Virus record (IMG/VR): IMGVR_UViG_2548876941_000012 | Direction: 5' to 3' (one strand) | Length of the DNA stretch: 32,850 nucleotides | Source: a virus | Lineage: Duplodnaviria > Heunggongvirae > Uroviricota > Caudoviricetes | Shown: positions 29,172-29,874 of the stretch, in pieces | How positions within the stretch are numbered: position 1 is the stretch's first letter | Layout of the letters: each line of letters starts with the position of its first letter | Translations under genes and position numbers: made by a program | The notes under the pieces: model-generated | The model's input: the letters and a program-made list of their open reading frames with translations, nothing else | What the model was told of the DNA's origin: nothing | The model's database searches: none

Positions 29172-29821
29172 TGTGGGACAAAGTTAATCAACGCGTACAG
29201 CAGGCACTGGCCGCCGTTCGCCAGGCATTCAGGGTGGTGACCGGTACGGTGGACAGTTCGACCAAAGTACAGCTGCTTCAGCTTAACGGGCTGGCTGGCG
29301 AACAGCTGGACGGTGCGGAGTATTTTCAGCATTACGGCCTCACCACATCCCCGCCGCCCGGCTCAATGGGTATTGCCGTTCCGCTGAACGGCAATACCTC
29401 CCATACTGTCGTGGTGGCCACAGAGCACGGCGCATATCGTCTGACGGAACTGAAACCCGGGGAAGTGGCCCTGTATACCGATGAAGGCGCGAAAATCGTA
29501 CTGAAGCGCGGACGGGTTATTGAAACCGAATGTGACGTTTATCGCGTGAAATGCAAACGCTACGAGGTTGAGGCAGAGGAGAACGCCACATTCACGACAC
29601 CGTTACTGACAGCCAGTGACAGGCTGACGGTGGAAGGCAAAATCACCGGCAACGGTGGCATGGCCATCAGTGGAGGCAAGGGATACACTGCCACCTTTGA
29701 AGGCAATATCAACCATGTGGGTGGAGTGATTACCTCCGTTGACGTCACCATTAATGGCGTTAAAATCGGAACGCACAAACATCCAACCCCACACGGCATG
29801 TCTGACACGCCGGTTAATTAA
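29168..29821 (+). CDS. baseplate spike/assembly protein (Mu gp45-like)
   Basis: 217 aa; C-terminal region GTHKHPTPHG with His residues, as in spike-tip proteins. Confidence 0.7.
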   Translation: MMWDKVNQRVQQALAAVRQAFRVVTGTVDSSTKVQLLQLNGLAGEQLDGAEYFQHYGLTTSPPPGSMGIAVPLNGNTSHTVVVATEHGAYRLTELKPGEVALYTDEGAKIVLKRGRVIETECDVYRVKCKRYEVEAEENATFTTPLLTASDRLTVEGKITGNGGMAISGGKGYTATFEGNINHVGGVITSVDVTINGVKIGTHKHPTPHGMSDTPVN

Positions 29822-29839
29822 GTGCTGAACACCCTCACC
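29821..29839 (+). promoter_or_regulatory. candidate late-promoter activator site, copy 3 (AGTGCTGAACACCCTCACC)
   Basis: Third copy of the GTGCTGAACACCCTC motif, in the 53-nt gap upstream of the gp46-like gene. Confidence 0.45.
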
Positions 29840-29874
29840 TGATTCTGACCTGTCCATGCTGCCAGACTGGCGGC

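Follow-up and report, generated by a model that had tools for sequence, protein, structure and literature searches.

The stretch of DNA analysed here (the window, 32,850 nucleotides (nt) long; IMG/VR record IMGVR_UViG_2548876941_000012) is a Mu-like prophage of Escherichia coli E2348/69 that carries a conserved motif in the gap between its gp45-like spike gene and its gp46-like baseplate gene. The best explanation of the evidence as a whole, and in our judgement a probable one, is that this motif is the activator box of a late promoter, P46. That P46 is an activator-dependent promoter is, from its sequence, very likely. This reading is supported by the recurrence of the motif before the lysis genes, before gene I and before gp46, by the presence of a Mor/C-family gene, by a fixed spacing of 53 nt to gp46 and by a hexamer at a fixed 23 nt from the box. 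The elements concerned are as follows.

29171–29821, + strand: gp45-like spike gene (Pfam PF06890, 8.5e-24; annotation).
29822–29839, + strand: activator box GTGCTGAACACCCTCACC (family consensus CCACTGAACCCCTTCACC), with CTGAA and TC invariant in 33 distinct relatives.
29875–30225, + strand: gp46-like baseplate wedge gene (Pfam PF07409, 9e-19; PHROG 180, baseplate wedge subunit; RefSeq).

The exact 19-mer AGTGCTGAACACCCTCACC occupies 29821–29839 on the + strand, its first A doubling as the final base of the gp45 TAA stop codon (29819–29821), which the box adjoins. The gap itself runs from 29822 to 29874 (53 nt), and gp46, whose ATG lies at 29875, is the first gene downstream of the box. Both the placement of the motif within this gap and the gp45-like and gp46-like labels given by a first-pass annotation of the window are thus borne out, the labels by the Pfam matches listed above. 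When the 19-mer was searched with up to three mismatches, the window gave 2 matches against 0.00 expected (100 shuffles), which, as far as sequence comparison can tell, removes the concern, raised in that annotation, that the motif might prove a chance match. The 13-nt core GTGCTGAACACCC recurs at 17906 without mismatch and at 9748 with one mismatch, and an extended dyad, GGGTGCTGAACACCC, starts at 17904; of the two further copies claimed earlier, the one at 9748 was placed correctly and the one at 17903 was off by about 2–3 nt. Compared with one another, the three copies share the core, lie on the + strand and are all intergenic, filling three of the five late-region gaps of more than 40 nt. 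The copies at 9748 and 17906 belong to sister promoters.

9748–9794, + strand: Plys (box 9748–9765, hexamer TACCCT 9789–9794), upstream of the holin gene (9908).
17906–17962, + strand: PI (box 17906–17923, hexamer CATCAT 17947–17952), with the gene I ATG at 17960, 7 nt past the hexamer.

As relatives we used IMG/VR viral contigs found with the major head protein, giving 80 loci in which this protein, T, is 58–99% identical. Protein-seeded searches supplied the useful relatives; a DNA search of phage records (‘distant’, 2-kb region) returned only three short coding matches. In close E. coli relatives (89–97% identical) the whole 53-nt gap is almost unchanged and its parts cannot be discriminated. 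In loci whose gp45 and gp46 are only 45–63% identical to those of the window, the gap still contains CCACTGAACC(C/T)CTTCAC and, after it, an inverted repeat whose end falls on the gp46 start codon. Box variants among the roughly 60 distant relatives include GTG-, CTG- and CCA-CTGAAC. A position weight matrix (PWM) finds the box in nearly all 80 loci before the lysis genes, 53 or 54 nt before the I ATG and exactly 53 nt before the gp46 start; as the matrix was built from gp46 sites, the matches there are circular, and those at the lysis genes and I are independent. Over 1.43 Mb of relatives the matrix gives 158 matches on the + strand against 1 on the − strand. The closest named phage, Klebsiella phage ST405-OXA48phi1.1 (MK388859.1; locus L105), has box copies in the same arrangement, at 9267, 18060 and 29747. 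We give next to no weight to the idea that the motif is a functionless chance repeat or recombination remnant: its short length is all that favours it, and it meets zero shuffle matches as well as a position, strand and spacing that are kept where the flanking proteins are only 45–63% identical.

A collection-wide scan of genome contigs (596 Gb) for CCACTGAACCYCTTCA is uninformative on distribution, the matches listed being nearly all chance 16-mers. Only 12 of the 120 matches listed carry xAxxxT at the expected offset, and inspection by eye gives about 7 of these the lys- or gp46-type context of the family; Xenorhabdus, Trabulsiella, Erwinia and Martelella are among the sources of such contexts. 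More distant Mu-like relatives (T about 60% identical; gp46-upstream regions of loci L077, L081 and L082) have xAxxxT, 6 nt and ATG before gp46, often inside an inverted repeat, with other upstream boxes, and in L076 (about 17290–17380) the upstream regions of I and gp46 have CCGCTTCACCCC in common. Because these relatives keep the hexamer and ATG with different boxes, their sequences suggest that the promoter position is older than the present box. In relatives with a gp45–gp46 gap of 89–95 nt (for example, L024, L025 and L029), the gap opens with a conserved TAATTTGTGGTA(A/C/T)(C/T). A similar block, TTTTTTTGTGGTCTG, stands in the window at about 8885–8895, after a terminator upstream of the activator gene, a resemblance that could be due to chance.

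Aligning 122 non-redundant promoter instances of the lys, I and gp46 classes on the box leaves only two blocks conserved in all three: the box, extended to CCACTGAACCCCtTCA.CTGAat, and xAxxxT at offset 41–46 from the box start, which is present in 147 of the 158 PWM matches. The sequence between box and hairpin shows no conservation across the 122 aligned instances. In an ungapped alignment of 33 distinct gp46-upstream sequences, the invariant positions are CTGAA, TC, one stem C, then A and T within the hexamer, and TG of the start codon together with the two bases that follow it. The promoter elements of the window are read from these blocks.

29839–29844, + strand: weak −35-like hexamer CTGATT (family CTGAat), with 18 bp between it and the −10, in a moderately conserved block that adjoins the box (122 instances).
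29863–29868, + strand: predicted −10 hexamer CAGACT (xAxxxT), at the top of the hairpin, with invariant A and T (alignment columns A48 and T52).

CTGATT agrees with the −35 consensus at three of six positions, with an 18-bp spacer, and there is thus no typical −35. The hexamers are of −10 type: those before gp46 include CAGACT, CATAGT, TAGTAT, TATTAT and CATCAT, those before I include TATTCT and TATCGT, and AATACT is found before lysis genes. In the window the box is an imperfect dyad, TGAA (29826–29829)-N4-CTCA (29834–29837); in the family it is TGAA-N4-(T/C)TCA, with its centre 31.5 bp upstream of the hexamer start. If transcription starts at 29875, the dyad centre lies at −43.5, a value that assumes that the hexamer spans −12 to −7. 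Other readings of these letters were tried and rejected. A −10 placed immediately behind the box, or 8 nt before the loop, falls on positions that are not conserved; a sigma-E-like reading of TGAAC...TCTGA has the wrong spacing and is missing in relatives; and TCACCT, which could be taken as an anti-Shine-Dalgarno element in the box, is not conserved in relatives.

A candidate for the protein that would act at the box is encoded upstream of its first copy, as C is encoded upstream of Plys in Mu.

8953–9420, + strand: Mor/C-family late transcriptional activator gene (PF08765, 28.5 bits against a cut-off of 24.9; PHROG 836, 3.5e-42).

PHROG 836 is described as ‘late transcriptional activator’, and the protein is 29% and 26% identical to Mu C and Mor, respectively. 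It is the single recognizable Mor/C-family gene of the window, in which no second one was found; Mu has two. Searching viral contigs with this protein returned only relatives that are 92–100% identical; the lys-class box of the distant relatives has a gene other than the activator immediately before it. In the Klebsiella phage, an open reading frame (ORF) of 156 amino acids at 8304–8774, unannotated in the record, belongs to the Mor/C family and is 43% identical to the window activator. Just upstream of the window gene, the region 8853–8952 contains a terminator-like hairpin, GCCCCTGCCATGCAGGGGC, then a run of seven T and then a good sigma70-type promoter, TGTACA-16 nt-TATAAT. This region recalls the terminator/Pm arrangement of Mu, although only one Mor/C-family gene was found in the window. 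The neighbouring ORF (8376–8852) has no Pfam or PHROG match.

Late promoters of Mu provide the closest comparison. Their C sites, imperfect dyads of 16 bp with the centre at −43.5, overlap a missing −35 and are followed by recognizable −10 hexamers (PMC2582627), and the dyad is described as lying just upstream of a nonoptimal −35 (bioRxiv 10.1101/2025.05.02.651988). In the annotated Mu Pmom, the centre of the TTAT-N6-ATAA dyad is 31.5 bp before TAAGAT, a spacing equal to that of the window family, and the hexamer has the same index in all four annotated Mu late promoters. The window family thus shares with Mu an encoded Mor/C-family activator, multiple imperfect-dyad boxes just upstream of a poor −35, a recognizable −10 (TAxxxT or CAxxxT), a dyad-to-hexamer distance of 31.5 bp and the placing of copies before the lysis genes, before I and before the tail/baseplate block. 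It differs in the box itself, which is TGAA-N4-TTCA within CCACTGAACCCCTTCACC in the window family and TTAT-N6-ATAA, or CCATAACCCC, in Mu; the window box GTGCTGAACACCCTCACC is accordingly not a Mu C-site-like box. It would thus have a different specificity, consistent with an activator that belongs clearly to the family and yet is only 26–29% identical to Mor and C. The first-pass annotation had proposed that the split falls elsewhere than in Mu, and so it does: the third promoter stands between 45 and 46 in the window, where the gap is 53 nt, whereas Mu PP lies inside N, 335 nt upstream of P, and genes 45 and 46 of Mu overlap without a gap. There are two further differences: in the window family an ATG without a Shine-Dalgarno sequence follows 6–7 nt past the −10, whereas Mu lys, I and com have annotated ribosome-binding sites and lie 9–15 nt past their promoters; and the hairpin around the −10 in the window family has no counterpart in Mu.

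A sigma70-like promoter inside gp45 (TTGACG-16-TAAAAT, 29739–29766) could instead transcribe gp46 and make the motif irrelevant to initiation. Ten of its 12 positions agree with the consensus, and it ranks first among the matches in 17000–32850, a region in which promoter-like matches are fewer than in shuffles (3 versus 9.1). The site lies within a conserved coding stretch (VDVTINGVKIG) and shows no conservation beyond coding need, one close relative has a synonymous change that weakens the −35 (TTGATG), and a transcript starting there would carry the full hairpin and no Shine-Dalgarno sequence. A constitutive promoter for tail genes is also implausible in a prophage. We regard this origin for gp46 transcripts as very improbable.

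For P46 the position of the hexamer also predicts where RNA would begin.

29875, + strand: predicted transcription start, give or take about 2 nt, on the A of the gp46 ATG (the seventh base after the hexamer), derived from the hexamer position and the 31.5-bp spacing.

With the hexamer set at −12 to −7, +1 falls on this A, and we hold with moderate confidence, on the strength of the sequence, that gp46 transcription starts at or next to its AUG. The distance from hexamer to ATG is 6 nt for gp46 and 7 nt for I (6 in a few lineages) in the window and essentially all relatives. This leaves no room for a Shine-Dalgarno sequence, and the gp46 and I mRNAs are therefore predicted to be leaderless or to have a leader of 1–2 nt. 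Among 32 late-region genes, predicted pairing with the anti-Shine-Dalgarno sequence is weakest for I (+0.7 kcal/mol); that of gp46 (−4.2 kcal/mol) is among the weakest and comes from a misplaced GGCGG, with no usable Shine-Dalgarno sequence. The mRNA of lambda cI from PRM is leaderless. The predicted gp46 transcript likewise begins with AUG and has no Shine-Dalgarno sequence; unlike cI, late structural operons are concerned here, some relatives use GTG and the start is predicted from sequence.

The second feature of the region is a hairpin that ends on the gp46 start codon.

29852–29880, + strand: hairpin with a 13-bp stem (29852–29864 paired with 29868–29880); the gp46 start codon (29875–29877) lies in the 3′ arm and the −10 hexamer in the loop and top of the stem.

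The 86-nt segment that contains it (29815–29900) folds at −27.5 kcal/mol (z = −4.2; further folding gave z = −4.6). Across the alignment of 33 sequences, 87.9% of cells are paired, against 29–49% when the partner is slid by 1–3 columns. Compensatory double changes occur in 6 of 13 pairs (22 cells), and none of 500 shuffles reaches the observed score. The 10-bp core stem has 288 Watson–Crick, 23 G–U and 5 A–C cells, and the excess of G–U over A–C argues for pairing in + strand RNA rather than for a DNA cruciform or an antisense RNA. A change of the start codon from ATG to GTG goes with a compensating change from T to C in the 5′ arm (columns 41/59: UA 30, CG 3). An Rfam search of 29600–30100 at E ≤ 1 gave no matches.

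Because the hexamer is in the loop, any start 6–9 nt downstream excludes the 5′ arm from the transcript, and as P46-started RNA would be without that arm, the hairpin would form only on RNA that comes from upstream. Over 38 distinct relatives, the mean predicted probability that the start codon is paired is 0.99 in read-through RNA and 0.32 in RNA starting at the AUG. Whether the hairpin blocks translation of gp46 from read-through RNA is, on this modelling, a close call that we place slightly on the doubtful side.

The proposed mechanism would run as follows. A dimer or tetramer of the Mor/C-family activator (8953–9420) would, we infer by analogy, bind TGAA-N4-(T/C)TCA at 29826–29837 and, from a box next to a poor −35, recruit sigma70 RNA polymerase to CAGACT (29863–29868). 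Transcription would start about 7 nt on, at or beside the A of the gp46 ATG (29875), and a leaderless or nearly leaderless mRNA would cover gp46, gp47, gp48 and the fibre genes. Read-through RNA from the I operon would have both arms and fold the 13-bp hairpin over the gp46 start codon. P46-started RNA would be without the 5′ arm and have a free AUG, so that the wedge and fibre genes would rely on P46 for their translation.

Several observations weigh against this model. CAGACT matches the −10 consensus at only three of six positions, and the dyad is weak in the window itself (TGAA/CTCA, three of four positions). The box is unlike the Mu C box CCATAACCCC, which makes binding by the Mor-like protein a matter of analogy. 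In the hexamer, the invariant A and T also close the hairpin and, before gp46 alone, could be structural; this alternative is disfavoured because the lys and I classes keep them. AUG starts gp46 in the window and most relatives, but GTG does so in L053, L054, L066, L068 and the Klebsiella phage. As GTG is poor for leaderless initiation in E. coli, its use in one lineage counts against efficient leaderless translation there. Gene I needs high expression and yet would also be leaderless if the model holds, an unusual situation in enterobacteria. At PI, conservation of a comparable hairpin is not general: the RNAalifold consensus there has only 3 bp, some lineages have 6–7 bp and nothing significant is seen at the window PI; a general hairpin there was therefore rejected, several lineages having a flanking inverted repeat and the family no consensus. 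Finally, the benefit of shielding one late operon from the read-through of another is not obvious.

The same structure can be read in two other ways. P46 may be real and the hairpin a mark of the operon boundary on the upstream transcript, acting as a 3′-end stabilizer, an RNase processing site or a weak terminator or pause for PI RNA. The hairpin is stable, favours + strand RNA and sits at the junction of two functional modules; L069 and L076 have a terminator-like hairpin between gp45 and the box; and in L044, L050 and L051 the lys-class hairpin is followed by a run of six T, resembling an intrinsic terminator. Neither the window nor its relatives have a U-tract after the gp46 hairpin, however, and the terminator scan omits it. 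A stem of 10–13 bp is a short substrate for RNase III. The stem always ends on the start codon and tracks the change between ATG and GTG, as expected of start-codon masking and not of a generic 3′-end structure. We therefore consider a boundary element unlikely.

The other reading dispenses with the promoter and takes box and hairpin as RNA elements of one long late transcript, for example as a site at which a phage protein opens the hairpin, in the manner of Com and mom. The hairpin does hide an AUG that has no Shine-Dalgarno sequence, and Mu sets a precedent, with Com annotated as a translational activator and protein-relieved inhibition at mom. Set against this, the box also stands before the lysis genes and I, with xAxxxT at the identical offset and structures that are different or absent; it has the dyad symmetry of a DNA site, and the hexamer spacing equals that of Mu Pmom. 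Rfam finds nothing and the interval between box and hairpin is not conserved. This leaves an RNA-only function quite improbable, and, like the boundary element, the gp45-internal site and chance, it is less likely than the favoured model of an activator-dependent promoter inside a start-masking hairpin.

The first-pass annotation had further proposed that a late promoter here would make the baseplate wedge and fibre genes a transcription unit separate from the tape-measure, N, P and gp45 genes. The promoter part gains support from the recurrence of the box, the conserved 53 nt and the hexamer; the separate unit does not, as the terminator scan detected no terminator between gp45 and the box. 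Read-through from PI is thus plausible, and an additional, internal promoter is a likelier role for P46 than the start of an isolated transcription unit. If the gp46 module is set apart at all, this may happen at translation, by way of the hairpin. Within the 209-nt gap before PI, past gene G and ahead of the PI box, an AT-rich inverted repeat at 17843–17876 (CGTTTTTAAAA-GGG-TTTTAAAAACG, then GTTTTATTT) is likely to be the terminator of the lys/head operon; the scan missed it because the stem has too few G–C pairs. Shielding may matter less at PI because this gap with its terminator-like hairpin precedes it.

A related structure accompanies the promoter before the lysis genes. In distant relatives, the lys-class promoter reads AATACT, GACACCATCC-loop-GGATGGTGTC, ATG, in which the 5′ arm is anti-Shine-Dalgarno-like and the 3′ arm is the Shine-Dalgarno sequence. 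The stem covaries, with double changes in four of nine pairs, and in most relatives the first ATG directly after the 3′ arm opens an endolysin-like ORF. The predicted start, 7 nt past the hexamer, lies inside the 5′ arm. Examples are L049 (470–570), L025 (244–340) and L105 (MK388859; 9267–9350), in which a CACCATCC 5′ arm pairs with a Shine-Dalgarno-like GGATGGTG that adjoins the first ATG; the stems followed by six T in L044, L050 and L051 look like intrinsic terminators. The Plys leader of the window (9790–9880) has a structure that is different and longer: ACCCTGTC, which overlaps the TACCCT hexamer, pairs with GACAGGGT, followed by GTTATTTA, around an inner stem AAGGCAC/GTGCCTT. This structure is terminator-like, with the outer 5′ arm upstream of the predicted Plys start, so that transcripts from upstream might terminate at the leader while Plys transcripts escape.

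Arrangements of this kind are known elsewhere. In T4 genes e (lysozyme), soc, 49 and I-TevI, an inhibitory helix covers the Shine-Dalgarno sequence and AUG on long transcripts, and late transcripts start inside the helix and are translated (PMC3014915). As in T4 gene e, the Shine-Dalgarno sequence and/or AUG would be buried on read-through RNA here, and RNA from the promoter itself is predicted to be without the 5′ arm; the lys-class promoters of the window family, with their anti-Shine-Dalgarno-like arm, resemble gene e as well. The differences are that T4 late promoters use gp55/gp33 and TATAAATA, whereas a sigma70 holoenzyme with a Mor/C-type activator is proposed here; that the masked element is the AUG of a gene without a Shine-Dalgarno sequence, so that the released mRNA would be leaderless; and that the shielded gene is a baseplate gene in the late region rather than a lysis gene exposed to early transcription. 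A promoter inside a start-codon hairpin is thus known from T4 and, as far as we found, has not been described for Mu-like phages; the literature on leaderless mRNAs and on late promoters of Mu-like prophages yielded nothing on the window family.

A second parallel comes from IS10/Tn10, for which Davis, Simons and Kleckner are said to have described, in 1985, a ‘fold-back inhibition’ against outside transcription. There too, read-through RNA from outside is complementary to the translation start and is untranslated, and the resident promoter starts inside the structure; Mu-like phages are also transposable. Unlike in IS10/Tn10, the window site is internal, 20 kb from the element end and under an activator-dependent promoter.

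Tentatively, a clade of Mu-like myovirus prophages, in Enterobacterales and some beyond, would have the −10 and start of these promoters inside a start-masking hairpin, with the lysis and wedge/fibre operons translated only from activator-started RNA and with I and gp46 leaderless. If true, the gene e strategy of T4 would have been reinvented independently, with a sigma70/activator promoter, and enterobacterial phages would have a rare case of leaderless structural-gene operons. What is new here is a box of its own on Mor/C geometry, for which the case is strong, together with a start on the gp46 AUG and a silencing hairpin, both of which we infer. The third late promoter has moved in the evolution of Mu-like phages, from before P in Mu to before 46 here, and the split falls between the hub/spike genes and the wedge/fibre genes. 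The rule of box, 23 nt, xAxxxT, 6–7 nt and ATG allows late transcription units to be annotated in a widespread and unstudied family, among whose members are prophages of pathogenic E. coli and a Klebsiella phage. In practical terms the impact is modest, and promoters of this class are already well known. Should the leaderless start and the gate be confirmed, the family would offer a simple natural system for studying how an activator-dependent promoter and an RNA structure together couple translation to promoter choice, and for leaderless translation in E. coli.

The identity of the prophage rests on the region 29000–31000, which matches the chromosome of E. coli O127:H6 E2348/69 (NC_011601.1) at 99.7% identity; about 60 of 5,426 complete E. 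coli genomes have a relative. RefSeq annotation and Pfam show that Mu gene order is retained across the window, from a GemA-like gene, the Mor-family activator, holins, a GH108 endolysin, terminase, portal, F and G, through the I protease (17960), the T major head protein, sheath, tape measure, N and P (27960), to the gp45 spike, gp46, gp47 (30225), gp48 (31308) and a fibre gene (31880). Within the late operon, a DNA methyltransferase gene (12068–12808, PF01555) has a hairpin, GGCCCGG-TTTT-CCGGGCC, in front of it (region 12022–12808). It is missing from L003 and L004, where terL directly follows the DUF1804 gene, and can therefore be regarded as variable cargo. In a related prophage of strain 08-00022 (L002; NZ_CP013662.1, 6335–11282), an IS66-family element, ISCro1, interrupts the tape-measure gene, and this copy is probably defective.

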